A stretch of DNA of 64,000 nt. Origin: an uncultured Bdellovibrionales bacterium (GTDB taxonomy: Bacteria > Pseudomonadota > Alphaproteobacteria > Micavibrionales > GCA-2720935). The translations under genes were made by a program, and so were the position numbers. Location: assembly GCA_964351525.1 (NCBI GenBank), contig CAYGOD010000001.1, positions 78,534 through 142,533 of the forward strand, in the 5' to 3' direction. This document shows, piece after piece, positions 12,367 through 39,093 of the stretch. The notes beneath the pieces were generated by a model. That model saw nothing but the letters and a program-made list of their open reading frames with translations. It made no database searches and was not told the origin of the DNA. The first letter of the stretch is position 1, and each line of letters starts with the position of its first letter.

Positions 12367-12396
12367 CAATTAGTCACCTAAATTAAATGATTAAGA

Positions 12397-14114: not shown

Positions 14115-14117
14115 AAT

Positions 14118-14846: not shown

Positions 14847-14865
14847 TTTAAAAAATCTCCTTTTT

Positions 14866-18000: not shown

Positions 18001-18014
18001 ATCTAATTCCTCCC

Positions 18015-19031: not shown

Positions 19032-19036
19032 GATTT

Positions 19037-20260: not shown

Positions 20261-20346
20261 TGTTATTTCCGTTTTTAAATGTTCATAGAAAAACGCAGCC
20301 CTAAACAGAGCTGACGCAAAATGCAGGCACAATTAGCCTGCGAACA

Positions 20347-20691
20347 TTAAATACGGGGTGGGCGACGCAATGCCGAGTGCTTGAAAGAATTATGATTATC
20401 AGAAGAAACTAAAATAAACGGCACGTTGACATTCATAGGTGTTTTTAAAGGGGCATTAAAAGTTGTAATTGTTTGAGAATGAACACAGCAACAATCAGTA
20501 CATGAACCTTGCTCTTGATTTTCATCCTGATTGTGGCTCTGCCCTGAGTGGCAAGGTTCGCTATCTGTTTTGTTGTGTTGCTCCATTTGATAATGATCAC
20601 ATGCATGGTCAGCAACATAAGCATGTGCTAAATCGGAAAAACCTCCGACAACGAACATAAATAAAAATATGCATAAGGTGAAAACTTTCAT
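20347..20691 (-). CDS. Small secreted Cys/His-rich protein (first gene of the czc-type operon)
   Basis: Signal peptide followed by a mature part rich in His, Cys, Asp and Gln (DHACDH, CHSGQSH, SCTDCCCVH). It occupies the position of small czcI-like periplasmic proteins, but no homology was established. Confidence 0.4.
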   Translation of the reverse strand: MKVFTLCIFLFMFVVGGFSDLAHAYVADHACDHYQMEQHNKTDSEPCHSGQSHNQDENQEQGSCTDCCCVHSQTITTFNAPLKTPMNVNVPFILVSSDNHNSFKHSALRRPPRI

Positions 20692-20775
20692 GATTCGAGG
20701 ATAGGCTCTTTTTCTGCTTAATCAAGAAAATAATTTAATAAGCTAACTACGAGGAGAAATTTTACAAAGATTAGC

Positions 20776-21180
20776 TTATTTATCTTTATTTTGATCGTCT
20801 ACCCCATATATCGGAGGCATAGGCTCAACTGGCCCATAAGGCGGTCTAATGATAATAGTAGGTCTCTGCATTGATTGCTCAACGGGAGAGGCTTTTTCAA
20901 GATATTGCATTACAGTTTTTAAAGCCTGCATATTGCCTTTCAAGCTCTCGCTGTAAAGCTTGTTAATAAGGGCTTCCTTTAGTTCTATCTGTTCTTTCCT
21001 TCCACCTTTGTTAATTGTGACAAGTTGTTTGGACACTTCGAGAAAAGTATCCCAAAATTTCTTTTCTTTTTGTGCATTAGTTGGGCGCCCATTTTGATTG
21101 CCAGATTGTCCTTTTTGAAACTGCGTTGATTTTGGCGGTCTGCCGTAGCCCACTTCATAGTCATCGTTATTATCCGTCAT
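20776..21180 (-). CDS. DUF5681-like protein
   Basis: The motif GYGRPPKSTQFQKGQSGNQNGRP matches the remembered DUF5681 N-terminal signature. The ATG at 21180 overlaps the upstream gene's end by 11 nt. Confidence 0.55.
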   Translation of the reverse strand: MTDNNDDYEVGYGRPPKSTQFQKGQSGNQNGRPTNAQKEKKFWDTFLEVSKQLVTINKGGRKEQIELKEALINKLYSESLKGNMQALKTVMQYLEKASPVEQSMQRPTIIIRPPYGPVEPMPPIYGVDDQNKDK

Positions 21181-22483
21181 GGTGCTCTCCCTTCTTTTGA
21201 TCAAAGGTTTGTCCATCTTCGTGAACTGCAACTTTTAAAGTTTCTTCCTTGTAGCGTTGGATGATCACATCGACATATTTAGGATCAAGCTCGATTAATC
21301 TCGCCTTACGCCCAGCTCGTTCAGCAGCGATTAATGAGCTGCCACTGCCGCCAAATACATCGAGAACAATATCACCACGTTTAGTGCAATCGAGGATAGC
21401 ATCTTCAATCATGATAACTGGTTTCACTGTAGGATGAAGCTCAAGATCTTTGTTGTTTTGGAATGTATTCACACCTGCATAGTCCCACACATTGGTGCGA
21501 TAACGCCCATGCTTGCCAAGTTCTACATTGTTGATATGAGGTTCTGTTCCATTTTTATAAACAAACACCAATTCATGTTTAGATCGGTATAGCGAACCCA
21601 TACCGCCATTGGTTTTGTTCCATATGCATAAATTCTTGAAATCATCATAAATCTCGCCGGCCTTGGTGATTTCTTTGATGTGACGCCAATCCATACAGAT
21701 ATAATGGAGTGAACCATTAATGGAATATTCCTTGAGATTCTGAAATGCGGTTTTCAAGAACCGTGTGAATTCTTCTTCTGACATCTCACCCGATGCCATT
21801 TTGAATTCATCATGTTTGACTTTGCCATTCCCACAAATGTGACCGTTTACAGGCACATTATAGGGTGGGTCTGTAAAAATGGCTTGGGCCCGTTCAGATT
21901 CCATCAAGCGTTCGTAAGATTCTGACTTGGTGGCATCACCACAATACAAAATATGTTCTCCCAGATACCACAGATCGCCTAATTGACTCACTGGGTTATT
22001 TGGAAGATTCAGAATTGATGGTTCTTCTGGCGATGCTTGATTACCCATCATAAAACCATCAATCTCAGCAATTTCAAAGCCAGTGAGCGTTAAATCAAGG
22101 TCGAGATCAAGGTCAGCAATGGTCTGAATTTCTGACTGTAGGATTTCAAAGTCCCAGCCAGCGTTTTCAGCGAGTTTATTATCAGCGATGATATAGGCGC
22201 GCTTCTGCGCTTCGGTTAAATGCCTCAGATAGATAATAGGTACTTGATGAATTCCAACAAGCTTAGCCGCTTCAAGGCGTCCATGACCAGCAATAATAGT
22301 ATGATCTGCATCAATCAGAATGGGGTTGGTAAACCCAAACTCGTGCATACTATCGGCGATTTGCTGAATTTGCTTTTTTGAATGCGTACGTGCATTGCTT
22401 TTAAAGGGTTTAAGGTCACTAGATTTTAAATAATGGATTTGTAAGTTTTGCCCAAGATGGGCAAAAGCATCTGCTTTTTGCAT
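21170..22483 (-). CDS. ParB-like N-terminal domain fused to N6/N4 DNA methyltransferase
   Basis: ParB-N blocks (NARTHSKKQIQQIADSMHEFGFTNPILID, IIAGHGRLEAA). Methyltransferase motif IV IFTDPPYNV and AdoMet motif VLDVFGGSGSSLIAAE. Confidence 0.85.
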   Translation of the reverse strand: MQKADAFAHLGQNLQIHYLKSSDLKPFKSNARTHSKKQIQQIADSMHEFGFTNPILIDADHTIIAGHGRLEAAKLVGIHQVPIIYLRHLTEAQKRAYIIADNKLAENAGWDFEILQSEIQTIADLDLDLDLTLTGFEIAEIDGFMMGNQASPEEPSILNLPNNPVSQLGDLWYLGEHILYCGDATKSESYERLMESERAQAIFTDPPYNVPVNGHICGNGKVKHDEFKMASGEMSEEEFTRFLKTAFQNLKEYSINGSLHYICMDWRHIKEITKAGEIYDDFKNLCIWNKTNGGMGSLYRSKHELVFVYKNGTEPHINNVELGKHGRYRTNVWDYAGVNTFQNNKDLELHPTVKPVIMIEDAILDCTKRGDIVLDVFGGSGSSLIAAERAGRKARLIELDPKYVDVIIQRYKEETLKVAVHEDGQTFDQKKGEHHDG

Positions 22484-22661
22484 GATAAGTCTCCTAGGAA
22501 AAATAGTTTTCCATTTTAATGTTTAAGGGGATGACCAAGAGGTGCCTTAGGCTCTCAAGGATGGTCCCCTTGGGACTCATCAATGTCTGAAAATAAAAAC
22601 GTCGTTAACGCTTTCAAAGTATATTTTATTCTAAATAAATCCTGCAGTCAATAAATTGATC

Positions 22662-23153
22662 TTATGATTTACAAAGCTCGTTCCATATTTTTGCAAAATC
22701 ATCAACTTCATCTTCAAAAAAAGTAAGTTCTGGCGATCCGGACACAAAGTATTTATAACCAACATACCCGCCATATGCATTTTTTGAATTGACCTGACCG
22801 CAGACTACATGCGTGCCACTAGCTTTACTATAAAACACATTTTTAAACTGTGCAGATGATGCATCTTTTAATCGTGATCGCACATAATCTTTTGTATTCC
22901 AAATGAAGATATCCTGTTTGTTTTTATCAAGCAGATAATCCTGTTTCTCTTGAGTAGAGGCTGCTTTATATTCATCTTCGTGCAGTTTTGCCGAAATGCT
23001 CCCAAAGACAAGAAGTACAATAAAAACCGAGAGCAACCCTAGAGCTATTTTTGAGATAATTGAAACAGGATCACGTTTCTCTGCACAATTGATGCACGTA
23101 ATAGTACTTTTACTAACGCCTTGATTACATTTCTTACATTTGGGTAATGCCAT
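22662..23153 (-). CDS. Zinc-ribbon / single-TM protein with extracytoplasmic domain, unknown function
   Basis: MALPKCKKCNQGVSKSTITCINC (CxxC…CxxC), then a TM helix, then a domain of about 100 aa. The ATG at 23153 has a GGGAG SD 8 nt upstream. The track's longer start runs into the structured element. Confidence 0.5.
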   Translation of the reverse strand: MALPKCKKCNQGVSKSTITCINCAEKRDPVSIISKIALGLLSVFIVLLVFGSISAKLHEDEYKAASTQEKQDYLLDKNKQDIFIWNTKDYVRSRLKDASSAQFKNVFYSKASGTHVVCGQVNSKNAYGGYVGYKYFVSGSPELTFFEDEVDDFAKIWNELCKS

Positions 23154-23170
23154 CTTACAACTCCCGTTAA

Positions 23171-23380
23171 TGTTAAAAGTCACCAGGCGCTTATCGCTCT
23201 GGTGACCGGGAGTTTGTAAGTTGCAATTACACAACCGCGACGATCTTTAGACCGGGGTCTTGGACATACATCGCCGCCTCCCGATCGTAAGAGATCGAAA
23301 GGCGACATCATGACGGCGATATCAGCCGGTAATTGCAGGGTTACAAAGCCCCGGCGAATACGCAAAACCGTATTCACAGC
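23171..23380 (-). ncRNA. Candidate structured RNA or cis-regulatory leader (four-way junction + intrinsic terminator), family not recognised
   Basis: A locally GC-rich island in AT-rich DNA. A 21-bp interrupted closing helix (23329-23354 with 23206-23231) encloses three hairpins, including a 12-bp helix at 23275-23304. There is a 5' hairpin at 23356-23375. The 3' hairpin GTCACCAG/CTGGTGAC is followed by UUUU on the minus strand. Several G-U pairs exist only in the minus-sense transcript. Confidence 0.45.
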
Positions 23381-23408
23381 CATACGTTATCTCTAATAGC
23401 ATTTTGTA

Positions 23409-24158
23409 TCAAGGAGAAAGATAGTTTTGGAAAAGATCGTAAAAGCCTATAACCGCTTGGGTTAAAGCATATGATGTTGTTATTAAAACTGCTAATCCGC
23501 CAACGAAACTGATAATGTTTTTTATTTTTGGAGCCGTTCGGTCCCAAAATGCAGTTTTAGGGCTTCCCAATATTAGAAGATGCCTTTTATTTTTTGATAA
23601 CCACCAATCGTGCGCGTAATGTTCTTCGTATACTTGAAACAAGCTGCTTTTGCTTAGCACTCTCTCGTTTATCGTGAGCGTAGAATTTTTTTCGTAAGAA
23701 AACCCATTACTTTTTCCTGACCATACACCACTAATATTGGAGATGTAATATAGAGCATCTAATAAGCTTGCCCCTTCGTATTTTGACTGCGCGATAATTT
23801 CTTCAACCGTAACGCCTTCTTTAAGTTTACTTGGATACATTTCTTTCAAAATATTAAAACACTCCTCCATAACCTCAATAAGGTTTTCCGATTTTTTAGA
23901 CTTTATAAGTGGAGGGGCATACGGTGAAAATCGATAAAAATTATGAGATTTATCATGTTCAATCCATCGTTCTGTATGATCTAGTTGATCTAGAGTATCC
24001 ATTTCGTCGGCATGTTGGGCGCGATATTTACTTTTATCAACTTGCGGCGGGATTCCTTGTAATGCGCTAAAAACATTTCGAAGGCACTGAACTTTCTCAG
24101 GACCTAAAACTTTAATCGCTTTTTTAATTTGCGTCTGATAGGTTTTTCTTACACTCAA
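23409..24158 (-). CDS. Hypothetical protein with C-terminal TM anchor
   Basis: A 249-aa ORF with a C-terminal hydrophobic helix (IISFVGGLAVLITTSYALTQAVIGF). No domain recognised. Confidence 0.5.
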   Translation of the reverse strand: MSVRKTYQTQIKKAIKVLGPEKVQCLRNVFSALQGIPPQVDKSKYRAQHADEMDTLDQLDHTERWIEHDKSHNFYRFSPYAPPLIKSKKSENLIEVMEECFNILKEMYPSKLKEGVTVEEIIAQSKYEGASLLDALYYISNISGVWSGKSNGFSYEKNSTLTINERVLSKSSLFQVYEEHYAHDWWLSKNKRHLLILGSPKTAFWDRTAPKIKNIISFVGGLAVLITTSYALTQAVIGFYDLFQNYLSP

Positions 24159-24170
24159 TATTTTGTCCTA

Positions 24171-24554
24171 TTAAACCGACCAACGAGCTTCTTGTTCTTC
24201 ATCTTCATCTTCATCTTCATCTTTAGCAGCGTCCTTTCGCAATCCTAACTGCTGAATCATTGTTTGTGTCCAGAATCGAACTTGTTTGATTGGATGGTCT
24301 TCTAGATCTTTAAGTGGGAGCTCATAGAGCGCGTAATATGTTGTTCTGGATCCGCTCCATCCATAAGTTCCGATATTTCTTGCAATACCATCTAGAACAT
24401 CTTTTCTGTCACCAAAACTATCGAGCAATCTGCGCATGATAGGATGAAGTGTTCTTACAGCATCTTCAGGGTTTTGAGATGTTAAAACTGGCACAACAAC
24501 AGCAACAAAAGCTGGAGCAACATCCGGGTGACCATTTTGGTCACAAATAAACAA
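24171..24554 (-). CDS. Hypothetical protein, possibly a 5'-truncated remnant
   Basis: A 127-aa ORF with only a TTG start and no visible SD. It has an acidic DEDEDEDEEQE tail and reads like the C-terminal piece of a larger helical-repeat protein. Confidence 0.3.
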   Translation of the reverse strand: MFICDQNGHPDVAPAFVAVVVPVLTSQNPEDAVRTLHPIMRRLLDSFGDRKDVLDGIARNIGTYGWSGSRTTYYALYELPLKDLEDHPIKQVRFWTQTMIQQLGLRKDAAKDEDEDEDEEQEARWSV

Positions 24555-24680
24555 TGGGGTTTGCTTTATTTACGGCTCTGCGTAAAGTAGTTTTATGGCC
24601 GATTTCACGGTTGCACAAAAAATGATTGATAGAATCAATTATGCCTTACAGAATATATTATACATTACGTAGATATTTTC

Positions 24681-25210
24681 TTTCCCTGATATTTCCCTGT
24701 TAATTGTTGGTCATATAACGGTGCCTTTGTCGTAACTTATTGTTTTGCAATAGGTTACAAGCTCTTAAATGTCCGTACTATTAAATATTACTAAAATTTT
24801 CCCTGTAAATTCCCTGTTTAACAGGGAATTTGCTATGATCGTTTAGTGCTATTGAAAAGCACTACACCGCCATACAGTCTTGCGTTTTTCCAAAAATAGA
24901 TATTTATCGTCCATGCCCGCGCTGTTTGCGGGCTTTCTAATATACGTCTTTAAAAGCCCTCATTGAGAATTGCTGAATAAAGCCAAATTATACCCATTCT
25001 CTCTTGGCCCTATATAGGCGAGGGCTCTTGCACAGTGTTTCAGGGTTTTAACACATTCAAATGACTTCTTAATTCCCTGCTAACAGGGAATTTTACAGGG
25101 AATTTTCTATTTTTCTAAAGCAAAAAAGCACCATAATGAAGCTGTTAGCAGTGTGAGCCTGGTTTCATGATGAATGACTCATTATATAATGCCAAATTAA
25201 CAGGGAATTT
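24681..25210. repeat. Array of nine A(A/T)TTCCCTGT(T/A)A motifs in both orientations (iteron/operator-like)
   Basis: Forward copies lie near 24682, 24693, 24799, 24810 and 25073. Reverse copies lie near 24821, 25083, 25095 and 25199. There is a perfect 25-bp palindrome AAATTCCCTGTT-T-AACAGGGAATTT at 24807-24831 and a second palindrome at 25071-25092. Tandem copies are spaced 11 bp apart. Confidence 0.8.
24915..24938 (+). terminator. Intrinsic-terminator-like hairpin inside the non-coding stretch
   Basis: GCCCGC-gctgttt-GCGGGC followed by TTTCT. No ORF lies upstream of it. Confidence 0.35.
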
Positions 25211-26723
25211 AAAGACGAATTAGTGTTTCAAAACTATCAATGATTGATTGATGTATATGATTTTTACTATGTGAGCCTTGCTTTGCAATATCAACCAAGC
25301 TTTCACCGTCGAAATGACGCGCTCTCCAAGAGATGCCCTTTACTACCCGTTTTAATAAATCTGCGTTCTCGTGACTAAATAGATCAAGTTTTTCTTGGTT
25401 GTCTGGTTTCTTTAATATGATAGCGTTTCTAGATTGTGTAAAAATATAATCGTATATGATGCATTCTGTTTCTGCGTATTTATCTTCATGACTCAAAACA
25501 TCTTTCCAAGAATAAGAAACTTTAATGTGAGAATGGCTTAGTGTTACACGTTGAATGTATCTCTGAATAACATCGGTATGTGTGTGGGGTCTCATATTGT
25601 CTGATGAAGAACTAAAAGCTAGTTTATCTATTGATACTTTGCTTAATTGTTCTTTGAGTTTTTCAGTTATAAAATCTTCAATTTGTTTTGCTGTGATGCG
25701 CGCGATAAGACCTTTGGGGTGATCTTTATATTGAAGTAGGTTCTGAGATATATAATAGCGATATTGCTTGGTCTTACCGTTCTTGGTTTTTTTAACAGTA
25801 TATGTTGGGCTGTACGGTGTACCATCAGGATCAAAGAGCAAGCCTTGTAACATATATTTAGATTGTGTCGTTTGCTTTCTAGCCGTAGCGTTCTCTGTTA
25901 ATAGTGTCTGTGCTTTGTTCCATGTTTCTTCATCAATGATTGCGTTGTGCAGACCCTCATAGATTTTATCTTTATGTGTTATCTTGCCGATATAAGCTTG
26001 GTTCTTCAAAATCTTATAAAGGCTTCCTCTGCTATAATATTTGTTACCATGCGTTCGTCCTTTCTGTGATGTCCGTATGGGGCTTTTTATGTTGTCTTGT
26101 TCGAGTGATGCCTTTAGCTCTTTGACTGATCTATATTCGAGATACCGTTTAAATATAAGTTCAGCTATTGGTGCCTCATCTTTATTAATCGCTAACTGCC
26201 TATTATCGATTGAATAACCAAGTGGTGCGGATCCACCCATCCACATGCCCTTAGCTTTACTTGCAGCAATTTTATCTCTGATACGCTCGCCTGTGACTTC
26301 ACGTTCAAATTGAGCAAAGGACAGTAAGACGTTAAGCGTTAATCGTCCCATCGATGTTGTTGTGTTAAAGCTTTGTGTGACGCTGACAAAGGTAACGCCG
26401 TATTCGTCAAAGACTTCTACCAGTTTTGAAAAGTCGGCCAATGACCGTGTTAGTCTATCAATCTTATATACAACTACGATGTTAGCCTTATAGGTCTTAA
26501 TGTCTTCTATAAGCCGATCTAAGGCTGGTCGCTCTAATGATCCCCCCGAATACCCACCGTCATCATAATGGACCTTGCTGGGTGACCAGCCTTCAGATTT
26601 TTGGCTTAAGATATAAGCCTCACATGCCTCACGTTGTGCGTCCAATGTATTGAAGGTCATGTCAAGGCGTTCATCTGTCGATTTACGGGTATATATGGCA
26701 CATATTTTTTTAGCATTCGTCAT
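25209..26723 (-). CDS. Large serine recombinase (paralogue of 9572-11170)
   Basis: Contains CAIYTRKST, LDAQRE, DGGYSG, VVVYKIDRLTRSL and SFAQFERE. The N-terminal ~200 aa are clearly alignable by eye with the first recombinase; the C-terminus differs. Confidence 0.9.
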   Translation of the reverse strand: MTNAKKICAIYTRKSTDERLDMTFNTLDAQREACEAYILSQKSEGWSPSKVHYDDGGYSGGSLERPALDRLIEDIKTYKANIVVVYKIDRLTRSLADFSKLVEVFDEYGVTFVSVTQSFNTTTSMGRLTLNVLLSFAQFEREVTGERIRDKIAASKAKGMWMGGSAPLGYSIDNRQLAINKDEAPIAELIFKRYLEYRSVKELKASLEQDNIKSPIRTSQKGRTHGNKYYSRGSLYKILKNQAYIGKITHKDKIYEGLHNAIIDEETWNKAQTLLTENATARKQTTQSKYMLQGLLFDPDGTPYSPTYTVKKTKNGKTKQYRYYISQNLLQYKDHPKGLIARITAKQIEDFITEKLKEQLSKVSIDKLAFSSSSDNMRPHTHTDVIQRYIQRVTLSHSHIKVSYSWKDVLSHEDKYAETECIIYDYIFTQSRNAIILKKPDNQEKLDLFSHENADLLKRVVKGISWRARHFDGESLVDIAKQGSHSKNHIHQSIIDSFETLIRL

Positions 26724-26733
26724 GCTTACAGTA

Positions 26734-26760
26734 ACGCTTGGCGTGACCGCTAAGTCCAGT
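26734..26760 (-). promoter_or_regulatory. 27-nt conserved leader box, copy C
   Basis: Sequence ACGCTT-GGCGTGACCGCT-AAGTCCAGT, lying 10 nt from the recombinase ATG. Its central 12 nt differ from copies A and B but can still form a hairpin. Confidence 0.5.
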
Positions 26761-26867
26761 CATATAGCTATAAATCGCCACATTTTTTTTTGCATAACAA
26801 TTGACAGCCTGCTTGAAAGCTTTTAATCATGATAATATCAAACATAAAATAAAGAGGACTTAAAATC

Positions 26868-27263
26868 ATGAAACTACTACCCAAGCTTTTTCTTGCTCCT
26901 GTATTTGCATTCGCTCTTTCAGGATGTGCGGATAATGATAGTTTAAAGCATCCTGAAAAACCCCTCAGTGAACTGGAGCTTAACTATACAACAAATCATG
27001 TCGAGATAGGTGATCTAGAGGCATCCTTGAAAGAAGTTGAGAATTTATCCGCTAAATTTTGTATGATAAGTGGTTATCGCCAAGGATTTTCTTTTCAGGT
27101 TGATACCGTGGGTCAATGCAACAACATTGCTGAAGGGTTAGCGCCAAATGGAAGTATTCGAGCGCATAGCTTTAATGAAGAAGGTGAAATTCTAGTAACC
27201 TACATTAAAGACACACGATCTCGTATGGATCATAGAATCTCAATCAGAAAGTATAACAACTAA
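26868..27263 (+). CDS. Small lipoprotein, unknown function
   Basis: Signal peptide with lipobox ALSGC. Confidence 0.6.
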   Translation: MKLLPKLFLAPVFAFALSGCADNDSLKHPEKPLSELELNYTTNHVEIGDLEASLKEVENLSAKFCMISGYRQGFSFQVDTVGQCNNIAEGLAPNGSIRAHSFNEEGEILVTYIKDTRSRMDHRISIRKYNN

Positions 27264-27484: not shown

Positions 27485-27853
27485 TTATTGTTTTCTCGTT
27501 TCACACCAACTTTTACGATACCCTTCATAGGGCCTTGCATCATCTAATTTGATCAGTTCTTCGCCTATGTTGAGGTCTTGATGATTATAGACAGTTGCTA
27601 ATGTACGGTCGTATTTGTCTGTACCAATGTCTTTGAGGGTCACAGGCTTATTATCAATCAACGCAATGAGCGCTTTTTTAGATTGCTTTGCTTTTGTGAT
27701 TTCGGATGCACATTTGCCTTCGATTTCTGGTGTATCGATATTGCGAATGCGGACACGATTGCGTTCGATAGTGCCATCTTCATGTTTAATATCTGCAGTG
27801 AATGTATCGCCATCATAAACGCTTACTACGTTAGCGCTATATTTTGGCATCAT
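27485..27853 (-). CDS. Thermonuclease (staphylococcal nuclease-like) family protein
   Basis: Contains VVSVYDGDTFTADI, VRIRNIDTPE and DKYDRTLATV, the SNase catalytic-core pattern. Confidence 0.8.
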   Translation of the reverse strand: MMPKYSANVVSVYDGDTFTADIKHEDGTIERNRVRIRNIDTPEIEGKCASEITKAKQSKKALIALIDNKPVTLKDIGTDKYDRTLATVYNHQDLNIGEELIKLDDARPYEGYRKSWCETRKQ

Positions 27854-28021: not shown

Positions 28022-29896
28022 TTACGGGTTAAACTTTAAGTGCCACGTCGTGATATCCTGCATGCGTGTATCATGTTTGAAACCGATAGATTTCATGAGG
28101 GTGCTAAATTGTGGATCTGTATTGGCTAACTTTAAGTCCATCCAAATGTCTTTAAAAAAACGATCATTTAAGGCGATAATATCCTTAGTAAAAGATTGCT
28201 CTTGATCCGGTGGAATTTTACAACGATTTATTACTGATACATAAGGTAGAATATAGGGGGCGCGGCATGAAGAACCGTTAAAGTCTTTTGTCACAAGACC
28301 GCTATCTCTACTGCCGAATAAAAAGTCACGCGCATCAATGATGTCCCAGAAATAAAAATCTTTATTTGGATGATTCATCTTAAAGACTTGTTCTGCTAAT
28401 GAAACGCTTTGACTAATATGCACGCCCTTTGGTAATCCTTGCTGAATCATACGTTTGGTTGATCCTGTTGCAATATCGTCATCAATAAATATATAGTCAC
28501 CTTTTGGTAATCGTTTAATATCTTGAGTGCTCTTTGCCCTAGACTGTAAGAGATCTGACCTAAGCTGTGGAGCGCTAAGTTCAAAAAAACGAGACACATT
28601 GATTAATTGATCTGTGCCACTGGTCAATAAGTCATTATTGAGAACACGATTGGGGTTTTCGTGCATTATTTGATCAACGATCTTTTGTTGATCTTTAGCA
28701 GACAATAATAGCGCCTTAATATGATCTGGATAACCAGGGGTGTTGGAGCGCTCAAAAGCATTTTCTAGGGCACGAACAAGGCCTTTTTTAAAGGTCTCAA
28801 GAGCCATGTCTAATGCTTTATCATTTATCTGACCTCGCCATGGACGTGTTGCCCAATATAAATCGTTTCTTATAAGATAATTATCTGTTTCTGGTGTAAA
28901 GCCAGCTTGTCTGTAACGCGGAATACCATTGAGGAGTTCTTGGTAATGCGGGTCTTGTTCAAAAATTTTATTCGCCTTCATTCGTCCGTTCCTGACATCT
29001 GACGATGAGGCTTCCACGCCCTTTGTTTGAGAAAACAAAATACGTTCATTATTATTAAGTCCCATATCGCTAATAATTTGATTAAAGTCAGCGCTATATC
29101 CTGGACGTTTTACACAGACACTTAAGCCTTTAGAAACAAAGCTTTGAGTAAAGGCAATATTATCGGCACCACACACATAAGCAACTTCAATGGGGACATC
29201 ACTATTAATATGCGCATGTAAATAGTCCTTCATGCGTTCACATGTATCTGTGAAGTTAATATCGGTTGGTGTATAGCGCGCAGCCCATGGATCAACGTTC
29301 AACCATGGTGTGTCTTGTAAAACTTTGTCGAGAAGCATAATGCGGTGTGCCGCGGTAAGACGTCTAGCATCATCACCCTTTGTCGATACATAATCATCAT
29401 GTGCAGGTGAAAAAAACCCGCCCAAAACATGATAGCCGTTTTCTTCTAATGTTTTTTTTGCGGTCTCCATCATCGCGACATGACCATCATGAACAGGGGC
29501 GAAACACCCGCTCGTCATCAATACGACCAATTGTTTTTGCGGGGATATGTGATTGTCTTTTAGGGCCTTGATTTGATTTTGAATATGCCCTAACGGTGTT
29601 GACAATATATTGACATCTTTCAAGGATTCCAGCGTTCCTGGGGTGAGCCCATCGTCAAAAAACCCAGCATTTTCTATTGTCTCAAGGGATTTATAGTGCT
29701 TGAAGGCATTCCAATAATATGGATCCTGCGCTATTTTCCATGCGATCCTCAGATCACCCTTGGTGTAATCAGAATCTTTTTTTAGCGCCGCGTTATAAAG
29801 AGCGATTAAATTATTCTTGTTTGGTTCGCCAGTGAACCCCAACGCATCATGGATGTCGTCTGTGGTCTGTATTTTTGAAATAGGGGCGAGGCGCAT
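28022..29896 (-). CDS. Multidomain protein: NMN/NaMN adenylyltransferase-like domain + C-terminal type I phosphoribosyltransferase-like domain
   Basis: Central TSGCFAPVHDGHVAMM (the (T/H)xGH nucleotidyltransferase motif) and ASSSDVR (the ISSTxxR-type motif). The C-terminal YIFIDDDIATGSTKRM is a PRPP-binding-loop-like motif. Confidence 0.55.
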   Translation of the reverse strand: MRLAPISKIQTTDDIHDALGFTGEPNKNNLIALYNAALKKDSDYTKGDLRIAWKIAQDPYYWNAFKHYKSLETIENAGFFDDGLTPGTLESLKDVNILSTPLGHIQNQIKALKDNHISPQKQLVVLMTSGCFAPVHDGHVAMMETAKKTLEENGYHVLGGFFSPAHDDYVSTKGDDARRLTAAHRIMLLDKVLQDTPWLNVDPWAARYTPTDINFTDTCERMKDYLHAHINSDVPIEVAYVCGADNIAFTQSFVSKGLSVCVKRPGYSADFNQIISDMGLNNNERILFSQTKGVEASSSDVRNGRMKANKIFEQDPHYQELLNGIPRYRQAGFTPETDNYLIRNDLYWATRPWRGQINDKALDMALETFKKGLVRALENAFERSNTPGYPDHIKALLLSAKDQQKIVDQIMHENPNRVLNNDLLTSGTDQLINVSRFFELSAPQLRSDLLQSRAKSTQDIKRLPKGDYIFIDDDIATGSTKRMIQQGLPKGVHISQSVSLAEQVFKMNHPNKDFYFWDIIDARDFLFGSRDSGLVTKDFNGSSCRAPYILPYVSVINRCKIPPDQEQSFTKDIIALNDRFFKDIWMDLKLANTDPQFSTLMKSIGFKHDTRMQDITTWHLKFNP

Positions 29897-29906
29897 GATG
29901 GATCTC

Positions 29907-31727
29907 TTACGGGGTTATTACTCTTTGATATACAATATCAGAGCGTATAATTAATTTTGGACGAGCATTCCCTTTCAAAGGTTCGCTCTCATGCAAAACG
30001 CGGTGGTCAAATATTAACGCGCTTCCAGACGTTGGCGGCACGGTCGCAATTATTTGATTTTTTGTGGCATTGCCTTCCCAGTCCTCAAAGTTCCTTTGGG
30101 ATGGCGGCGTTGACGCTTGGGGGTCATGGATAAATCGCGTTGAGCCACCGTCGTTAATCGCCATATCATTGAAATATAAAATTAATGATTTTAGCGTACG
30201 ACGACCATCGCCATAATCAAAAGGGGCGTCATAATGTGCAACTAAATTCCCCTTGTCATCGGGGCGATACATAATAAAACTTAATTTAGAATTTACGCCA
30301 ACGGCCTTCCAAACTTGTGCATCTAATGCATCAACGGACGTGCCTGTTTCTATATATTCAAAGGCAGGTATTATTGGCTGTAAACGAGACCATATTTTTT
30401 CAGAGAAAGTCTTAGAAAATGTTGTTGCACGCCAAGAGCCAATTTTATCGCCTGACATGACGTTAAAATTCTTTTTCATACCGTCTTCACCAACGGGAAT
30501 CCATGGCGCTATTTCTGAGGCTATTTTTTGAACTTGATCAACTTCATCCTTGGATAAGAGGTCATTGACGAGGATCGCCTGTTGTTGTCTATATGCGCAT
30601 TTTTCGGATAAATCAATAATATCGACAGAAGACTTTTCCGTAGGGTTGATTATTTTGTTAGTCTTTTGCAGGATAAAATCTTGATCGGATGTTTCAAAGA
30701 AACCAGGCATTTTATTTTTTATATCTTGGCTAGGCACATTGTCACTTGGAATTACAACCGTGTTATGCCAGCCCCCTGGAACACCACTTCTTAAGATGTC
30801 CAAATGATAAGCGGGAGAGCCCGGCTGGTTACCCAAATATTTATGCCCATTATAACTATGTAGTTTTTCTAGATTGCTTTGCATGGCATCAAATTGGTGC
30901 ATTGCGCCCTTGGATAATTGTCCCAATATATCTTTTTTTTCTATTTCTGATAGCTCAAGAAAATTCAAATATAGCTCTACAAAATCATAAGGCGCACCGA
31001 ATACTTCTGTGTCGGTTCTATCGTCATACATGTCACCGCGCGGAATGGCATTAATAGTACTGCTGGGTAGATCCAAAAAATGGGCTAATTCATAAACTTC
31101 TGATTTATGCAGATCTGAAATGACCTGTAGATCGACAAGTCCATCAGAATATTTTCCGACATAACCGAGATACGCCCCTTCGTCGCGGTTTGTCGTGCCA
31201 ATCAAGATACCAGAGCGATCTTGCATCTGCATTAAAGTCGCACAATAAGCCAGCGCCATCGTGCGCACATGTGCAACGGATTGTCCTTTCGCCCATTCAT
31301 CACCCGTAACCCCTAGTTGTGCTTCGACTGTCTTTGTTAAAACATCATGCGGGGCGGTAATGTCAATGGCTAAACGTTTAGAACCGATAAAATCCATGAC
31401 ATCATAAGCGCGGTTCATTGCGTCTTCTTGTCGGGTTGCGCCTGCGACAAAAGCGGGGATGGTGGGCGTCAAAATATGTTCTATTGGTGAGCCTTCTTGT
31501 TTTTTCGCATAGTCGATTAAGCCAGCAACCACAGATGAATCAATACCACCACTAAGGGCGACGATTGCCGTCTTAAGGGGGGTGTCTTTGAAATATGCAT
31601 TAATTAATGCGGCTTTTGCGTCTGCATAGCGCTTGGCATCAAAGCCTCTTTTTTGACGAAAACCACTTAAAAGATTTTTTAAATCCGTAGTGAGCTCTGC
31701 ATTATGATCTGTATTATAAACTTTCAT
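29907..31727 (-). CDS. NAD synthetase (NadE-type PP-loop ATPase) fused to 2OG-Fe(II) oxygenase (prolyl-4-hydroxylase-like) domain
   Basis: N-terminal VALSGGIDSSVVAG (SGGxDS PP-loop) plus NadE-like blocks (GTTNRDE, GKYSDG). The C-terminus has AHYDAPFD (HxD), GGSTRF and FDHRVLHESEPL (distal His). Confidence 0.65.
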   Translation of the reverse strand: MKVYNTDHNAELTTDLKNLLSGFRQKRGFDAKRYADAKAALINAYFKDTPLKTAIVALSGGIDSSVVAGLIDYAKKQEGSPIEHILTPTIPAFVAGATRQEDAMNRAYDVMDFIGSKRLAIDITAPHDVLTKTVEAQLGVTGDEWAKGQSVAHVRTMALAYCATLMQMQDRSGILIGTTNRDEGAYLGYVGKYSDGLVDLQVISDLHKSEVYELAHFLDLPSSTINAIPRGDMYDDRTDTEVFGAPYDFVELYLNFLELSEIEKKDILGQLSKGAMHQFDAMQSNLEKLHSYNGHKYLGNQPGSPAYHLDILRSGVPGGWHNTVVIPSDNVPSQDIKNKMPGFFETSDQDFILQKTNKIINPTEKSSVDIIDLSEKCAYRQQQAILVNDLLSKDEVDQVQKIASEIAPWIPVGEDGMKKNFNVMSGDKIGSWRATTFSKTFSEKIWSRLQPIIPAFEYIETGTSVDALDAQVWKAVGVNSKLSFIMYRPDDKGNLVAHYDAPFDYGDGRRTLKSLILYFNDMAINDGGSTRFIHDPQASTPPSQRNFEDWEGNATKNQIIATVPPTSGSALIFDHRVLHESEPLKGNARPKLIIRSDIVYQRVITP

Positions 31728-31731
31728 TATT

Positions 31732-32457
31732 TTATACCATTTTTCTTTTTAGGGAGGCTGTTTTTAGTGTCTTTTCAACGCCAGCTAATAAACAATCAAC
31801 GATTGGAATATCGACATTCACTTTTGTTGATAACCATGTCAGTTCGGTGCAACCGCTTAAAATCGCCTGTGCGCCTTGTTGTTCGAATTCTTGTGCCAGC
31901 GTTATAAAATCGTGGCGGATCTTTTCTGAATTATCACCGCCCATGACGCGGTAAATAATATGATTGATTTTTTGTTGTTGATCGTCATTGGTCACAATAG
32001 CGGTTAAACCACAAGCTACGGCTTCATTGAAATGAATATTGGCTTTTTTAGAACTGTCTGATCCTAAAACGGCAACCGTATTTAGGCCGAGTTCTTTTAC
32101 TGTCAGCATACCTTCACGGGGGAGGTGAATGATTTCTGCATTGGTTCGCGCTTTTATCTCTGGATAGAATTCATAAAGAGAGTTACAGGCAATTAAAACA
32201 ACATCACACTGCCAATGATTGAGGAGATCAATTTGTTCAAATAATTTAGTTTTGACTAAGGCGGCTTGTTCGACACCTTTGGCGCCAAAACCATCTAATC
32301 CGATAGATAGGTGAAGCATGTCTGGATAGTCTTGATCTTTGACCGCGCCATAGCCATGCTGTGCTTGACGTATAAGTTGTGTATGCGCATAGGCAGACGC
32401 CCAAGGCCCCGATCCTCCTATCATACCAATCTTCTTATTGAACTTCTTTGTTTTCAT
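31732..32457 (-). CDS. Aspartate/glutamate/hydantoin racemase family protein
   Basis: Contains IGMIGGSGPWAS and two Cys-containing half-site motifs (LIACNSL, LSGCTEL). Confidence 0.75.
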   Translation of the reverse strand: MKTKKFNKKIGMIGGSGPWASAYAHTQLIRQAQHGYGAVKDQDYPDMLHLSIGLDGFGAKGVEQAALVKTKLFEQIDLLNHWQCDVVLIACNSLYEFYPEIKARTNAEIIHLPREGMLTVKELGLNTVAVLGSDSSKKANIHFNEAVACGLTAIVTNDDQQQKINHIIYRVMGGDNSEKIRHDFITLAQEFEQQGAQAILSGCTELTWLSTKVNVDIPIVDCLLAGVEKTLKTASLKRKMV

Positions 32458-32697
32458 AGAACGACAATATCATAATACAATTTATATGTAAATGTAAAAT
32501 AAGCTCAATGTGAGTATTTACTTTTGGCTTTGTTTATTAAGAGAATAGTTAGGCCTAGGGGTTAGCCTTACATCACCTTAGCGCTTGTCTGAAAAAATAT
32601 TGAAACACTTATTTATCAACTAACCGGAAATGGTTTGTTTGACATATTGATAAAAATTATCTAATATAGTTTCATAACTAATAATAAAACAGCAGGT

Positions 32698-35793: not shown

Positions 35794-38700
35794 CTAAAGT
35801 TTCAAAGATTTCTGACGACTTGTAATAATGAACTGTCCAACCTCAGTGTCAGCAGTAAAATGACCTTCTGCGCGATTGATCTCTGCATCATCGCCAATAC
35901 CAGATATCATGTTGCCTTCAATTAATTCATAAGGCATTTCACCTTTTTCAAGACGCCCTTTGCCCAAAACAACGCGTTGTATTTTTTCGTCTTTCTTTAG
36001 GGCTTGATCGGCAACAGCATCTAAAAAAGCCTCTCTTAAGAAGTCAAAGTCGGCATTTCTGCGCTGCCAAGAATTTAGCACGAGATTGCCATCTTTTGAT
36101 ACCCAGCTGTGGAAAGCGCCAACAATTTGATCATTTTTGTTTTTAATGGCATAGGCGCTGGCTTCTTCGCCCTTAAACATTGCCAAAGCAAGATCGCGTC
36201 CTTGGTTTGCCAAATGAACGCATGAATTAACAAATTGCCCCATCCATAAATTTCGGTAGTCCCCAGGGGGGATGGTTTCTAACGTATAACCAGGTGCGCC
36301 AACATCTGATCCCTTTATAGAAATGTTGGGTAAGGCACGTTTGATTGATTTTTTAGCATTATTTTTAAAACCTTCTACAAAATCAAGACTCTCTTCGAAA
36401 TATTTCTCATCAACACCATTATCAAGTAACACCCTTGCGAGGTCTGGGTTCTTGTCTTTATTCGTGTAAGAACAGTGTTTATGAACAAGCTCTCTAAGAT
36501 CGGCTGGCTTACAACGAGAGAGGTCAATTTTATCAATGCCTGTTTTGTTTTTATTTAAAGAGACAACAGTTTTTTCTAGCTGCGGCGCAAAAGAAAGCCA
36601 TCTTAGGGCGCCAGCACCCCATTTAATCGCTAAGTTCCCCCACAGTTCTTTATTCCATTGGCCCTCACTCGGTAGTGCGAAAAGGCAAGCATTATGCACG
36701 GCCTCTGGTCCTTTGGCATGATTATGTAGATATTTAGAAATTTTATTTATATCGACAAAGAGAGTCGATAATTTGAACGCGTGAAATTCAGCACTGCCAT
36801 TGCTTTCTAGTTTGGAATAATAACGCATTGGTTCTAGAAGTTGTTGATATAGAGCCTCATTAAAATTCGTCGGCGGATTATAGAGAGCATCATCTGTTGG
36901 GATGGTTATTTTATTGTCTTGCCAAATGTCTCGATTTTTTGCAATGCGATCTAGCGCCTTATACATCGTTTCGAACATAGGTGTTTTTAAAGTTTCTATA
37001 TCTTCGTCTGATAATAACATAGGAAATTCTCTTGCTAGTAAAAGTCTTTTTTTGTGATCTTCAGCGCCAAAAAGAAAACCCGAGAAAAAAGCTTTAGCGT
37101 CATCTGCCTTATAGTCTTTGATCTTTGTTATCATCTCAATAACATGATCCATCGATTCTGTACTCTTCCATGCTTTCAATATCTCATTCTTGAATTCATA
37201 CGCGACGCGTCTCTGGTATTCTTCCTTTGGATAATAATCTCTGGCTGTTTTGTACCATAGATCAATAAGAGACGAGACCGCACCATGATTTTTTTCATCA
37301 TTGGCTATTTTAAAGCTATCAGTAAACGGGGCGTAGTCGCAGTCTCTTGAATTGATAGAACCAAAAACAGACTCGATAAGGCTTTTTTTACTTTCTTTGG
37401 TCGACCGACGATCATATTCTTTCTGAACGAAGGCGTAGACCAAAGAAAGAGATTGACTGTATTCGCCTTCCTCGATTTCTTGGCCATTGCTATACAGGCT
37501 ACATTGATTTTCGCGGCGGCGGTCTTCTCTGGTTGGTATCGTGACAAGTGTTTTAATCACTGAATTAATAATATATTCAGCTTCTTCCGTGTTCTCTTTT
37601 GGGCTGTTCTCTAAATACTTTAACAAAGTAGAAACAGTATTTTTGTCTCTTGTTAATGTCGCGCGGTGTAAAAGGTGGCGACGAATAACTTCATGATAGC
37701 CCCTGTTTTTTTGGTCGTCATTTTTTGGGGATCTTTGACGGTCTTGTTCTGTTGCAAAGCCACATAAGACCTTAAAGTCATCGGCATGACCATATTCTAA
37801 GGCTCTATTTAAAGCCGCTGTAAAATATTCTTTATTTTTTAAGGATATAGGATTAAGGACTTTTTTATTATGATTGCGCAATAATGTGAGGCGATCTTCA
37901 ATGTCCGACCACTTTAATGATGTCTCAAAACGGCTTTGTATATCGTAGTATGATAACTCTTTTTTACTGCCATATGAGCGCTCTAGGTATTGTCTAATAT
38001 AGTTAAAAAAATGTGTTTTATAATCGCGTCCATCTTCTTTTTGCCATTGCTCTATGATATCGATAAAGCTATTTAATGCGTCTGGATAGCGATTAAAAAA
38101 AACGTTAGAGGACATCCAGTGTCTAGTGTTTTCATTCTTGTTCTGAATATCCGTGTGCATACGATCATTCATAATTGCTTCACGGTCTTCGAGATTTAAG
38201 CTTAAAGCTTCATTCTTGAACATAGTTACAACATCTATATTCTTGTGTGCTAAAGCGGTAACAAGGTTAGCACGGATATAACGCCCCCAAGATCCAGTTG
38301 TTTGGCAGAGCTCATCTGCTTCTTGTAATAACGATTTAATTTCGTTAAAAATAGGGACAGGGTTTTCATTGTCTTGAATGTCAGGTAGAATCCCTATCTG
38401 AAAAAAAGCATAAGGCGTTTTATAGTCCTTTTTGGATTGATTAAAATAATATCTATAATTGTTCTTCATGATGGCGATTGATTTCACCATAAGATCACGG
38501 TCACGATTACGGATGGCTAAATGACAGGTCTCTTTAATGGTTTCAAAAACGTCATCTTTGCCCTGTCGCGGTAAGGGGTGCTTATCTTTATTGCTTCTAT
38601 ACCCGTAACTACCAAATTTTTTATGCCGTGCAGAAGAACGCCATTCTTCTTGGCGTTTAGTAAAGTGTGGGAATAATGGATTGTTGTAATGATCTAGAAC

Positions 38701-39093
38701 CCAAGACAGAATTGATGTTTGATTGTTTCTCAGCGCGTGACGGCTAATTCGCCCTAATAAATGCCAATAGGTATCCTTCATTTTTGATGCATCAATCTGA
38801 AGTGTTTTTAGAAAATCAAAATGACCTGGAATATCCCAGCGTATTTTACTTGTATCGCTTTGTTGTGTGTTACTGGCAGCTGTAAAATTAAAAGCACTAT
38901 GTAGGTATTGCAATGACGGTAATCCAATTGATACGGCCATATAGCGATTGAAGAGAGCATTTAATAAATTAACATCATTATGGCGCAATGCATCCAATAT
39001 CATTGGTGCAGCCAAATCAATGTCTGTTGCTTTATCCGCGTTTAAAGTGCCCGTATAAAAACGGTGCATAAATTTTAGCTCATGTGAATGCAT
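35794..39093 (-). CDS. Large (1099 aa) hypothetical protein, effector-like, no recognised domain
   Basis: A long uninterrupted ORF with very AT-rich codon usage and no signal peptide. Confidence 0.6.
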   Translation of the reverse strand: MHSHELKFMHRFYTGTLNADKATDIDLAAPMILDALRHNDVNLLNALFNRYMAVSIGLPSLQYLHSAFNFTAASNTQQSDTSKIRWDIPGHFDFLKTLQIDASKMKDTYWHLLGRISRHALRNNQTSILSWVLDHYNNPLFPHFTKRQEEWRSSARHKKFGSYGYRSNKDKHPLPRQGKDDVFETIKETCHLAIRNRDRDLMVKSIAIMKNNYRYYFNQSKKDYKTPYAFFQIGILPDIQDNENPVPIFNEIKSLLQEADELCQTTGSWGRYIRANLVTALAHKNIDVVTMFKNEALSLNLEDREAIMNDRMHTDIQNKNENTRHWMSSNVFFNRYPDALNSFIDIIEQWQKEDGRDYKTHFFNYIRQYLERSYGSKKELSYYDIQSRFETSLKWSDIEDRLTLLRNHNKKVLNPISLKNKEYFTAALNRALEYGHADDFKVLCGFATEQDRQRSPKNDDQKNRGYHEVIRRHLLHRATLTRDKNTVSTLLKYLENSPKENTEEAEYIINSVIKTLVTIPTREDRRRENQCSLYSNGQEIEEGEYSQSLSLVYAFVQKEYDRRSTKESKKSLIESVFGSINSRDCDYAPFTDSFKIANDEKNHGAVSSLIDLWYKTARDYYPKEEYQRRVAYEFKNEILKAWKSTESMDHVIEMITKIKDYKADDAKAFFSGFLFGAEDHKKRLLLAREFPMLLSDEDIETLKTPMFETMYKALDRIAKNRDIWQDNKITIPTDDALYNPPTNFNEALYQQLLEPMRYYSKLESNGSAEFHAFKLSTLFVDINKISKYLHNHAKGPEAVHNACLFALPSEGQWNKELWGNLAIKWGAGALRWLSFAPQLEKTVVSLNKNKTGIDKIDLSRCKPADLRELVHKHCSYTNKDKNPDLARVLLDNGVDEKYFEESLDFVEGFKNNAKKSIKRALPNISIKGSDVGAPGYTLETIPPGDYRNLWMGQFVNSCVHLANQGRDLALAMFKGEEASAYAIKNKNDQIVGAFHSWVSKDGNLVLNSWQRRNADFDFLREAFLDAVADQALKKDEKIQRVVLGKGRLEKGEMPYELIEGNMISGIGDDAEINRAEGHFTADTEVGQFIITSRQKSLKL

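Follow-up and report, generated by a model that had tools for sequence, protein, structure and literature searches.

A three-gene operon of an uncultured alphaproteobacterium as a candidate mobile NAD-building module with relatives in plasmids and jumbo phages

The locus and the question it raises

Why should an amino-acid racemase, a synthetase of nicotinamide adenine dinucleotide (NAD) fused to an oxygenase, and a nucleotidyltransferase fused to a phosphoribosyltransferase-like domain be encoded together? The question is raised by three open reading frames (ORFs) in a 64,000-nucleotide window (the whole stretch of DNA that was analysed: positions 78,534 to 142,533 of contig CAYGOD010000001.1, assembly GCA_964351525.1) of an uncultured Bdellovibrionales bacterium. 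The ORFs follow one another head to tail on the minus strand in the order racemase, NadE-oxygenase, NMNAT-PRT-like (an adenylyltransferase of nicotinamide or nicotinate mononucleotide, NMN or NaMN, followed by a phosphoribosyltransferase-like domain), with spacings of 4 and 10 nucleotides. The answer that we favour, with a probability of about 0.55, is that the operon is a copy of a mobile, widespread and hitherto unannotated NAD-building module, the four catalytic domains of which act together to take nicotinate through NaMN and nicotinate adenine dinucleotide (NaAD) to NAD. It would be a known kind of system, the building of NAD; its new parts would be a hitherto undescribed family of domains and a fourth activity, as yet unexplained. 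A preliminary description, made from the sequence alone, had pointed to three tightly spaced co-oriented genes; the ORFs and their short gaps bear this out. The motifs that it quoted (SGGIDS, HYD...HRVLH...RSD, GCFAPVHDGH, SSSDVR and GDYIFIDDDIATGST) are all in place, and profile scans with Pfam and NCBIfam uphold its assignments of the racemase, NadE, 2-oxoglutarate (2OG) oxygenase and NMNAT. The parts of the operon are as follows.

32457..31732, minus strand: racemase ORF, 241 aa, the operon's first gene
31732..32457, minus strand: Asp/Glu-type amino-acid racemase (PF01177, TIGR00035)
31727..29907, minus strand: NadE-oxygenase ORF, 606 aa
30828..31652, minus strand: NadE-type NH3-dependent NAD synthetase domain, residues ~26-300 of the 606-aa protein (PF02540, TIGR00552)
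31536-31553, minus strand: PP-loop SGGIDS of the NadE domain (motif check)
29910..30614, minus strand: prolyl-4-hydroxylase-like 2OG-Fe(II) oxygenase domain, residues ~372-606 (PF13640, PhyH)
30228-30236, minus strand: HxD motif of the oxygenase (motif check)
29991-30005, minus strand: HRVLH motif of the oxygenase (motif check)
29943-29945, minus strand: Arg595 of the oxygenase (motif check)
29896..28022, minus strand: NMNAT-PRT-like ORF, 624 aa
29546..29896, minus strand: N-terminal helical region, residues 1-117, with conserved DPYY and AGFFDDG (24-sequence alignment)
28901..29545, minus strand: eukaryote-type NMN/NaMN adenylyltransferase domain, residues 118-332 (PF01467, structure profiles)
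29480-29509, minus strand: GCFAPVHDGH motif of the NMNAT (motif check)
28991-29008, minus strand: SSSDVR motif of the NMNAT (motif check)
28025..28894, minus strand: C-terminal type-I-phosphoribosyltransferase-like domain, 290 aa, residues 335-624 (phosphoribosyl pyrophosphate (PRPP) loop, weak APRT/HGPRT matches)
28457-28501, minus strand: PRPP loop GDYIFIDDDIATGST (motif check)
28310-28345, minus strand: motif DIIDARDFLFGS of the C-terminal domain (motif check)
28244-28264, minus strand: RAPYILP motif of the C-terminal domain (motif check)

Two NAD-synthesis enzymes

By strong homology, the N-terminal half of the 606-aa protein is a NadE-type NAD synthetase, predicted to amidate NaAD or NaMN with ATP. 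The domain matches PF02540 with E 5.7e-28 (98 bits) and scores 94 bits against TIGR00552 nadE (cutoff 63.65); its 104.7 bits against the full-length equivalog NF010587 lie under the cutoff of 255, and the Pfam and NCBIfam scan of the 606-aa protein found no glutaminase domain. Among solved structures the family profile matches NH3-dependent NAD synthetases, the best being 3fiu, which we take to be the Francisella NMN synthetase; its lead over other NadE structures is small (E 2e-28 against 4e-25).

The adenylyltransferase occupies the middle of the 624-aa protein. It matches PF01467 (E 1.4e-07), 24 homologues all share its residues G130, P134, H139 and S298, and the family profile finds Arabidopsis NaMNAT (9rpk) with E 4.7e-33 and human NMNAT1/3 with E ~1e-22. 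An AlphaFold2 model of the whole protein (24-sequence alignment; mean predicted local confidence, pLDDT, 88.7; predicted template-modelling score, pTM, 0.89) is compatible with this, with Foldseek placing the predicted structure near 9rpk and 1nup (E 7e-10 to 1e-08, target-normalised TM 0.64-0.74); against BFVD the match of the 624-aa protein is confined to this domain. The score against the bacterial NadD equivalog TIGR00482 (52.4 bits) is under its cutoff of 112.45, and the adenylyltransferase is thus not an ordinary NadD. The helical region that precedes it is modelled with pLDDT >90 across most residues and is missing from short phage forms in the domain census described below.

The C-terminal phosphoribosyltransferase-like domain

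The last 290 residues are the new and least certain part; no model in Pfam, NCBIfam or PHROGs covers residues 335-624. A type I phosphoribosyltransferase (PRTase) is suggested by the PRPP-loop signature YIFIDDDIATGST, which consists of a hydrophobic β-strand, two acidic residues and then xxTGxT, and in which D473 and D474 are conserved in 100%, G478 in 97% and T480 in 96% of 157 sequences. Searched against the whole PDB, profiles of the domain built from 15 or 33 sequences find only APRT and HGPRT (all 16 matches to E=10), the best being APRT at E 0.022, and single sequences give only sub-threshold Pfam matches to PRTase-CE, PRTase_2 and Pribosyltran (E 0.05-0.15). In hhalign comparisons the domain aligns with APRT at 65-90% probability over 35-68 columns, the aligned stretch being the PRPP loop YIFIDDDIATGST with its strand, its helix and the following strand. 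Because no match reaches family-level significance, either by the Pfam thresholds or in the PDB, the PRTase call is graded marginal.

Other features of the domain agree with it, with qualifications. In the same 157 sequences eleven charged residues (R343, D422, R436, R453, D473, D474, D521, R523, D524, R545 and R558) are at least 94% conserved, a pattern that fits a predicted catalytic site for a polyphosphorylated ligand. An invariant motif, D-I-x-D-x-R-D-F-L-x-G-S, resembles the pyrophosphate (PPi) loop of APRT (LDSRGFLFG), but it is positioned after the PRPP loop, not before it; when the order of APRT was rearranged as a test of circular permutation, the human score rose from 45.9 to 48.5-50.3, and that of E. 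coli APRT was unchanged. Modelled alone, the domain reaches an AlphaFold2 pLDDT of 89.6; Foldseek of this model against the PDB found nothing significant, and the non-significant list is topped by PRPP synthetase and PyrR. A PRPP-synthetase-like identity was ruled out by hhalign (probability 0.2%). The domain thus shares with APRT and HGPRT the loop signature (hydrophobic strand, acidic pair, xxTGxT) with the helix and strand after it, and with APRT an Arg-containing D-x-R-D/G-F-L-x-G motif akin to the PPi loop, but it lies under every family threshold, has a third Asp in the loop, and extends over ~290 aa with additional helices. Of the earlier claim that the 624-aa protein combines an NMNAT with a type I PRTase, then, the first half stands firmly and the second only weakly: the PRPP loop is kept, APRT and HGPRT are matched at E ~0.02, and the structure search is silent. 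Judged from sequence, a type I PRTase is a plausible reading, not a proven one.

The oxygenase and the racemase

The second half of the 606-aa protein matches PF13640 (E 1.1e-05) and PhyH (E 1.4e-04). Its PF13640 score is 26.8 bits for the full 606-aa protein (cutoff 27) and 29.2 for the isolated domain, and the model matches 16/16 oxygenase-domain sequences. H498, D500, H575, H579 and R595 are invariant across 32 homologues, and the predicted catalytic centre (the HxD...H triad and the 2OG-binding Arg) is intact. The best solved relatives of the profile are prolyl 4-hydroxylases of Bacillus anthracis, Chlamydomonas and PBCV-1 (E 1e-05 to 0.04, the nearest at 1e-05 to 6e-04), with which the triad and the Arg are held in common; the module's oxygenase is instead fused to, or encoded between, enzymes of NAD synthesis. 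It occurs in ~16 of the ~22 distinct lineages in which NadE is paired with the NMNAT-PRT-like gene, either fused to NadE or as a separate gene between the two, and is missing from the core in about a quarter of lineages. The NadE-oxygenase fusion taken alone has >400 full-length relatives at ~40% identity. The oxygenase clearly belongs integrally to the module.

The racemase matches PF01177 with E 6.8e-23 (82 bits, cutoff 31) and TIGR00035 with 95.5 bits (cutoff 93.1), and has both catalytic-Cys motifs, IACNS and GCTE. Among the loci fetched for comparison (designated by L and a number) a racemase stands directly upstream of the module in six lineages; homologues directly precede NadE in L003, L006, L013 and L039, and, with a weak match, in L009. 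It is a frequent accessory of the module.

A module that recurs in bacteria and phages

The case for joint action of these enzymes comes from the company that they keep. A word-seeded search with the 624-aa protein brought up only 29 relatives. When its C-terminal domain was used as a profile in an exhaustive search, the yield was 1,140 cluster representatives at E <= 1e-3, 521 of them at E <= 1e-30; an architecture census covered 146 of the ~1,140. The full order Nterm-NMNAT-Cterm accounts for 84/146, NMNAT-Cterm for 19/146 and the C-terminal domain alone for 18/146; NadE, oxygenase, NMNAT and C-terminal domain, with or without the N-terminal region, form a single polypeptide in 21/146, Oxy-NMNAT-Cterm is found in 3/146 and NadE-NMNAT-Cterm in 1/146. 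NadE, the oxygenase or both are thus fused to NMNAT-Cterm in 25/146, in polypeptides of ~1,150-1,200 aa; Pfam scans bear out these architectures and add one further fusion, to a GNAT acetyltransferase. The C-terminal domain is almost always preceded by an NMNAT domain and rarely found apart from one. Of the 40 fetched loci, 33 have NadE adjoining the NMNAT-PRT-like gene, and they represent the ~22 lineages referred to above. The preliminary description had proposed that the genes work together, and neighbours conserved across phyla and fused into single polypeptides speak for it.

Neighbourhood conservation does not extend beyond the module. The two closest relatives (60% and 52% identity) show the cassette of three genes again, but in unrelated neighbourhoods. 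The module turns up patchily in several bacterial phyla, and sits on large plasmids or secondary replicons of Variovorax (in the gene order racemase, nadE, 2OG oxygenase, 'hypothetical protein'), Streptomyces, Paenibacillus thiaminolyticus and Leptospira interrogans; in RefSeq the NMNAT-PRT-like protein is labelled 'hypothetical protein', L. interrogans included. When a contig library was searched with the 624-aa protein, the single match was a distant Myxococcales locus. Genes for NUDIX, Macro, ADP-ribosylglycohydrolase, NADAR and RNA-ligase proteins stand in several module neighbourhoods, which fits NAD turnover and NAD-dependent repair.

In phages, a scan of IMG/VR found 24 viral loci, many of them in jumbo phages and about half on contigs of 180-465 kb, with RIIA/RIIB, tail sheath, Dda-like helicase and phage DNA polymerase genes as neighbours. 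The usual phage arrangement is a 300-330-aa NadE directly upstream of a 440-480-aa NMNAT-PRT-like gene, with a separate oxygenase gene between the two in L021, L022 and L031. A tblastn search of 50,697 GenBank phage records with the bacterial and phage versions gave no match. Only one of 11 representative phage loci has a canonical NAPRTase or Nampt at a distance of up to 6.5 kb, so that the module is usually without another nearby source of mononucleotide. These homologous NadE and NMNAT-PRT-like pairs on viral contigs strengthen the analogy with phage NAD pathways that had been drawn earlier. Being patchy, differently placed in each genome, and common to bacteria and jumbo phages, the module is an accessory one.

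Several individual loci deserve description in their own right. In L. interrogans (L038; NZ_CP043881.1, 84627-100033) the module consists of NUDIX, nadE, 2OG oxygenase and the 'hypothetical' NMNAT-PRT-like gene; the genes directly beside it encode an HNH endonuclease, a protein with a TIR domain, a tyrosine recombinase and a 'putative phage abortive infection protein'. Here an NAD-building module has a likely NAD-consuming defence gene for a neighbour. On the phage-like contig JAWVGW010000055.1 (L009, 2750-5471), a Prs-like gene (PF00156/PF14572, 296 aa) and a 586-aa NAPRTase-family gene, a pair resembling that of NARP1 or NARP2 (see below), lie just upstream of NadE and the NMNAT-PRT-like gene, with NADAR and a nucleoside 2-deoxyribosyltransferase-like gene; this element may carry two NAD routes. 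RNA ligase genes (PF09414 / phrog_548) adjoin the module in one bacterial locus (L013, 4495-5295) and in three from phages. Phage loci also hold radical SAM genes, in four cases, and in one case a HAD_SAK_2 'RNA repair' domain; these genes may tie the module to NAD-dependent RNA repair. On an Obscuribacterales-like contig (L012, 268-10895), a Ter-type cluster (PRTase_2/TRSP, StiP/PELOTA, C-C bond lyase and ATP-grasp_Ter) lies upstream of the NadE-oxygenase and NMNAT-PRT-like genes, and a 444-aa protein with two tandem NMNAT-like domains is encoded downstream.

The proposed pathway and its alternatives

How the favoured nicotinate-to-NAD pathway would run can be set out in three steps. In the first, which is its weakest link, the PRTase-like domain would join a pyridine carboxylate, most likely nicotinate, to PRPP, yielding NaMN; in the second, predicted from strong homology, the fused eukaryote-type NMNAT would adenylylate NaMN to NaAD; and in the third, predicted on equally strong homology, the NH3-dependent NadE would amidate NaAD to NAD. 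The last two steps may run in the reverse order, from NaMN through NMN to NAD, as in Francisella. The conservation of NadE beside the NMNAT-PRT-like gene implies a deamido (carboxylate) intermediate, since a route from nicotinamide would not need NadE, and a PRTase-like domain that almost never occurs away from NMNAT is what consecutive steps would lead one to expect. In phages, by analogy, the module would most plausibly maintain NAD during infection, a counter-defence role suggested by phage carriage and the current literature; in this chromosome it would most likely be an autonomous salvage or booster route.

Three observations weigh against this pathway. We know of no type I PRTase that acts on nicotinate. 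In the megaphage loci L014-L018 and L020 of IMG/VR (180-465 kb), a full-length (~570-aa) NMNAT-PRT-like gene has neither NadE nor oxygenase within 8 kb; its partners may lie elsewhere, or an amidated base may be used. Finally, a plain route from nicotinate to NAD requires neither an oxygenase nor a racemase, and the fusion of an unneeded oxygenase in most bacterial versions implies that the true substrate or product may differ.

What might the oxygenase do? It could hydroxylate protein and thereby regulate the module's enzymes, which would fit its prolyl-hydroxylase relatives. It could produce ammonia or oxidatively remove a ligated amino acid, and so feed the amide nitrogen; this would account both for fusion with an NH3-dependent NadE and for the presence of the racemase, and 2OG-dependent oxidative deamination has a precedent in KanJ. 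Conversion of the precursor base and modification of the product are further options. Obligatory pairing with the N-terminal DPYY/GFFDDG region, as a proline substrate, was considered and rejected, with exceptions in both directions (L030, L031 and L041; L008, L009 and L014-L018).

A bolder version of the nicotinate-to-NAD pathway is put forward tentatively. It would have jumbo phages and bacteria share an unrecognised, self-sufficient NAD pathway, comprising a divergent and possibly circularly permuted type-I-like nicotinate PRTase and an oxygenase step new to NAD metabolism, and constituting a fourth phage route of NAD reconstitution, directed against NAD-depleting immunity. O2- and 2OG-dependent supply of the amide nitrogen (by oxidative deamination or by dealkylation of an amino acid, either of which would account for the racemase), conversion of the precursor base, or a hydroxylation that switches the enzymes on would be candidates for the oxygenase step.

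The same unneeded oxygenase and racemase invite a different thought, that the module makes a modified pyridine dinucleotide or a related metabolite and not NAD itself. The target of the oxygenase would then be the base, the ribose or some attached group, which it would hydroxylate or dealkylate, and the NadE-like PP-loop enzyme would ligate an amino acid supplied by the racemase in place of ammonia. We consider this unlikely. It would make sense of an intact HxD...H...R centre, of an oxygenase held within one polypeptide in 24/146 representatives, of a racemase that recurs in six lineages, and of the Ter-type cluster beside the L012 module (PRTase_2, TRSP, StiP, PELOTA, C-C lyase, ATP-grasp), which belongs to a type predicted to make a nucleoside-like metabolite (PMC7824862). 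Yet the quarter or so of lineages, mostly phages, that hold just NadE and the NMNAT-PRT-like gene, with neither oxygenase nor racemase, keep a NadE that is 42-47% identical to the fused one, which indicates that the core reactions can proceed without the oxygenase; NadE is above the TIGR00552 cutoff, and the nearest solved relatives of the oxygenase hydroxylate prolines of proteins, not small molecules.

A more modest proposal turns on the marginal C-terminal domain: only the two steps from NaMN through NaAD to NAD would be encoded (the equivalent of nadD and nadE), and the domain would be no transferase but would bind PRPP, ribose-phosphate or ADP-ribose in a regulatory or processing role, like PyrR, PurR or the cRec domains that are tied to NAD enzymes in jumbo phages. 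PRTase similarity limited to the phosphoribosyl-binding loop with the adjoining helix and strand would be explained in this way, non-significant Foldseek matches do include receiver domains and PyrR, and divergent Rec domains linked to NAD and ADP-ribose enzymes (PMC7824862) count on the same side. We find the proposal quite doubtful, given that the conserved charged residues are spread across the whole domain, suiting a catalytic site, that all sequence-level matches are to catalytic PRTases, and that the domain almost never occurs apart from NMNAT.

It is improbable that these are simply the organism's housekeeping nadD and nadE with extra domains typical of the lineage. The 64-kb window does hold no second nadD or nadE, the flanking tldD and pmbA are housekeeping genes, and GC content is unremarkable. 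Against this stand the unrelated neighbourhoods of the closest relatives (60% and 52% identity), the copies on megaplasmids (Variovorax, Streptomyces, Paenibacillus) and those in phages, scores far under cutoff for TIGR00482 and the full-length NadE equivalog, and the scatter of the family over phyla, which is not the trait of one lineage.

The surroundings of the operon

The last alternative requires a look at the rest of the window, where the following features serve for orientation.

32469..32498, minus strand: promoter-like sigma-70-type site TTTACA-18-TATGAT, upstream of the racemase gene (consensus scan, 10/12 matches)
8296-8383: tRNA-Ser gene, start of a composite mobile element that spans 8296-26767
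9572-11182: large serine recombinase 1
25209-26723: large serine recombinase 2

The promoter-like site falls within the intergenic region common to the racemase gene and the divergent tldD. Operon G+C, at 0.40-0.42, does not depart from the surroundings; an Rfam scan around the operon found no riboswitch or other RNA element, and a search for operators and terminators at the operon turned up nothing convincing. The genes on the right are tldD and pmbA. For TldD the best named matches (55-59% identity) are in Micavibrio, Rickettsiales and other alphaproteobacterial metagenome-assembled genomes; judged by this one protein, the host is probably a divergent, uncultured alphaproteobacterium.

The mobile element looks like two tandem recombinase modules with metal resistance: the 5' ends of the two recombinase genes have a common 117-nt repeat (70% identity), related 52-nt sequences stand at 11163, 12322 and 26716, and the cargo consists of a CzcCBA-type RND efflux system, a CDF transporter, a MauE/DoxX-glutaredoxin protein and a ParB-N6/N4 methyltransferase. 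PADLOC matched only the methyltransferase and one small ORF on this island and none of the three operon proteins. The preliminary description had supposed that the island carries defence-type cargo and had tied the operon to it; this premise fails because the island is a metal-resistance element and PADLOC has nothing for the operon. That the operon is cargo of the island, offsetting NAD-depleting defence genes there, is scarcely credible: a serine recombinase gene ends 1.3 kb from the operon, and the L. interrogans module does lie beside TIR-domain and Abi genes and an integrase, but the cargo here is CzcCBA, the CDF transporter and the ParB-methyltransferase, PADLOC finds no NADase or other system, and the 52-nt repeats that mark the recombinases end at 26767, outside the operon.

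Some smaller observations on the window may be recorded. The small ORF matched by PADLOC (127 aa, 24171-24554, minus strand) corresponds only to the last ~120 residues of the 1,283-aa model PD-Lambda-4_A (E 1.2e-07), and may be a remnant of such a protein or a stand-alone C-terminal domain. The stretch that separates the operon from the recombinase holds a 122-aa staphylococcal-nuclease-like gene (phrog_452 'endonuclease', 27485-27853) and a 131-aa lipoprotein-like ORF (26868-27263); an independent Logan assembly of the same sequence (L002) stops ~170 bp past the latter, at the island boundary. Adjoining pmbA is a 1,099-aa ORF (35794-39093, minus strand; 1,091 aa in L002), Lys/Asn-rich and with no match in Pfam or PADLOC, which could be an effector-like protein of a host-associated bacterium. 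Further on (53727-59846) comes a 1,361-aa protein, one segment of which resembles inverse autotransporters and invasins (SinH/YchO models, far under cutoff), and after it a 624-aa secretin (GspD/PilQ-like).

Relation to known NAD systems

The chemistry proposed for the module is that of the Preiss-Handler pathway (PncB, NadD, NadE), from nicotinate and PRPP through NaMN and NaAD to NAD; both use an NMNAT-fold adenylyltransferase and an NH3-dependent PP-loop NadE, and both are found clustered and sometimes phage-borne, pncB-nadD-nadE clusters having been reported in gut jumbo phages (PMC11662467). The module differs in that it has no type II PncB, the place of which is taken by a divergent type-I-PRTase-like domain fused to the adenylyltransferase, in that its NMNAT is of the eukaryotic type and not NadD, and in the addition of the prolyl-4-hydroxylase-like oxygenase and, often, the racemase.

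Three phage NAD reconstitution pathways have been described: NARP1 (Adps and Namat), NARP2 (Nampt and Nmnat) and NARP3 (PnuC and a NadR-like protein) (10.1101/2024.02.11.579819; PMC13464706). The module is likewise compact, phage-carried and, to judge by its genes, in principle able to rebuild NAD, with an NMNAT-fold enzyme as in NARP2 and NARP3, but it requires NadE, hence a deamido intermediate, and has no type II enzyme such as Nampt or Namat, no kinase and no transporter. Phage carriage, moreover, holds for the homologues (the 24 IMG/VR loci), whereas the copy described here is in a bacterial chromosome. These NARP papers (10.1101/2024.02.11.579819; PMC13464706) make no mention of NadE or of the NMNAT-PRT-like fusion. 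A comparative survey of jumbo phages describes NAPRTase with NMNAT-Nudix or NMNAT-kinase fusions, and the architecture of the module is not among them (PMC7824862).

The principle of fusing NMNAT to an enzyme that supplies or recycles its substrate is shared with NadR (NMNAT and ribosylnicotinamide kinase) and NadM/NatV (NMNAT and Nudix); here, in contrast, the partner is PRTase-like and C-terminal, in an architecture that lies outside Pfam, NCBIfam and PHROGs. The reversed order of the last two steps has its counterpart in Francisella, which reportedly makes NAD from NaMN through NMN by way of the NMN synthetase NadE* and NadM, as Sorci and colleagues are said to have described in a 2009 paper that PMC7824862 cites. 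Both systems pair a single-domain NH3-dependent NadE with an NMN-capable adenylyltransferase, but the Francisella enzymes are fused to neither an oxygenase nor a PRTase-like domain. Literature searches found no published description of the NMNAT-PRT-like fusion, of a 'NARP4' or of a NadE-oxygenase-NMNAT neighbourhood.

Significance

Depletion of NAD is recognised as a major weapon of bacteria against phages, and the three phage pathways that rebuild it have been described since 2024. If the favoured reading is true, the module would be a fourth compact one, working via deamido intermediates and supplying its own mononucleotide-forming domain, and a non-orthologous replacement of PncB would be added to NAD biochemistry. 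The pairing of NAD-synthesis enzymes with a prolyl-hydroxylase-like oxygenase, for which no precedent was found, would mean either new chemistry or a control of NAD synthesis that depends on oxygen and 2OG. The enzymes of the module could serve in the production of NMN or NAD, and annotation would benefit widely, in the pathogen Leptospira interrogans too, from no more than a plain assignment of function.

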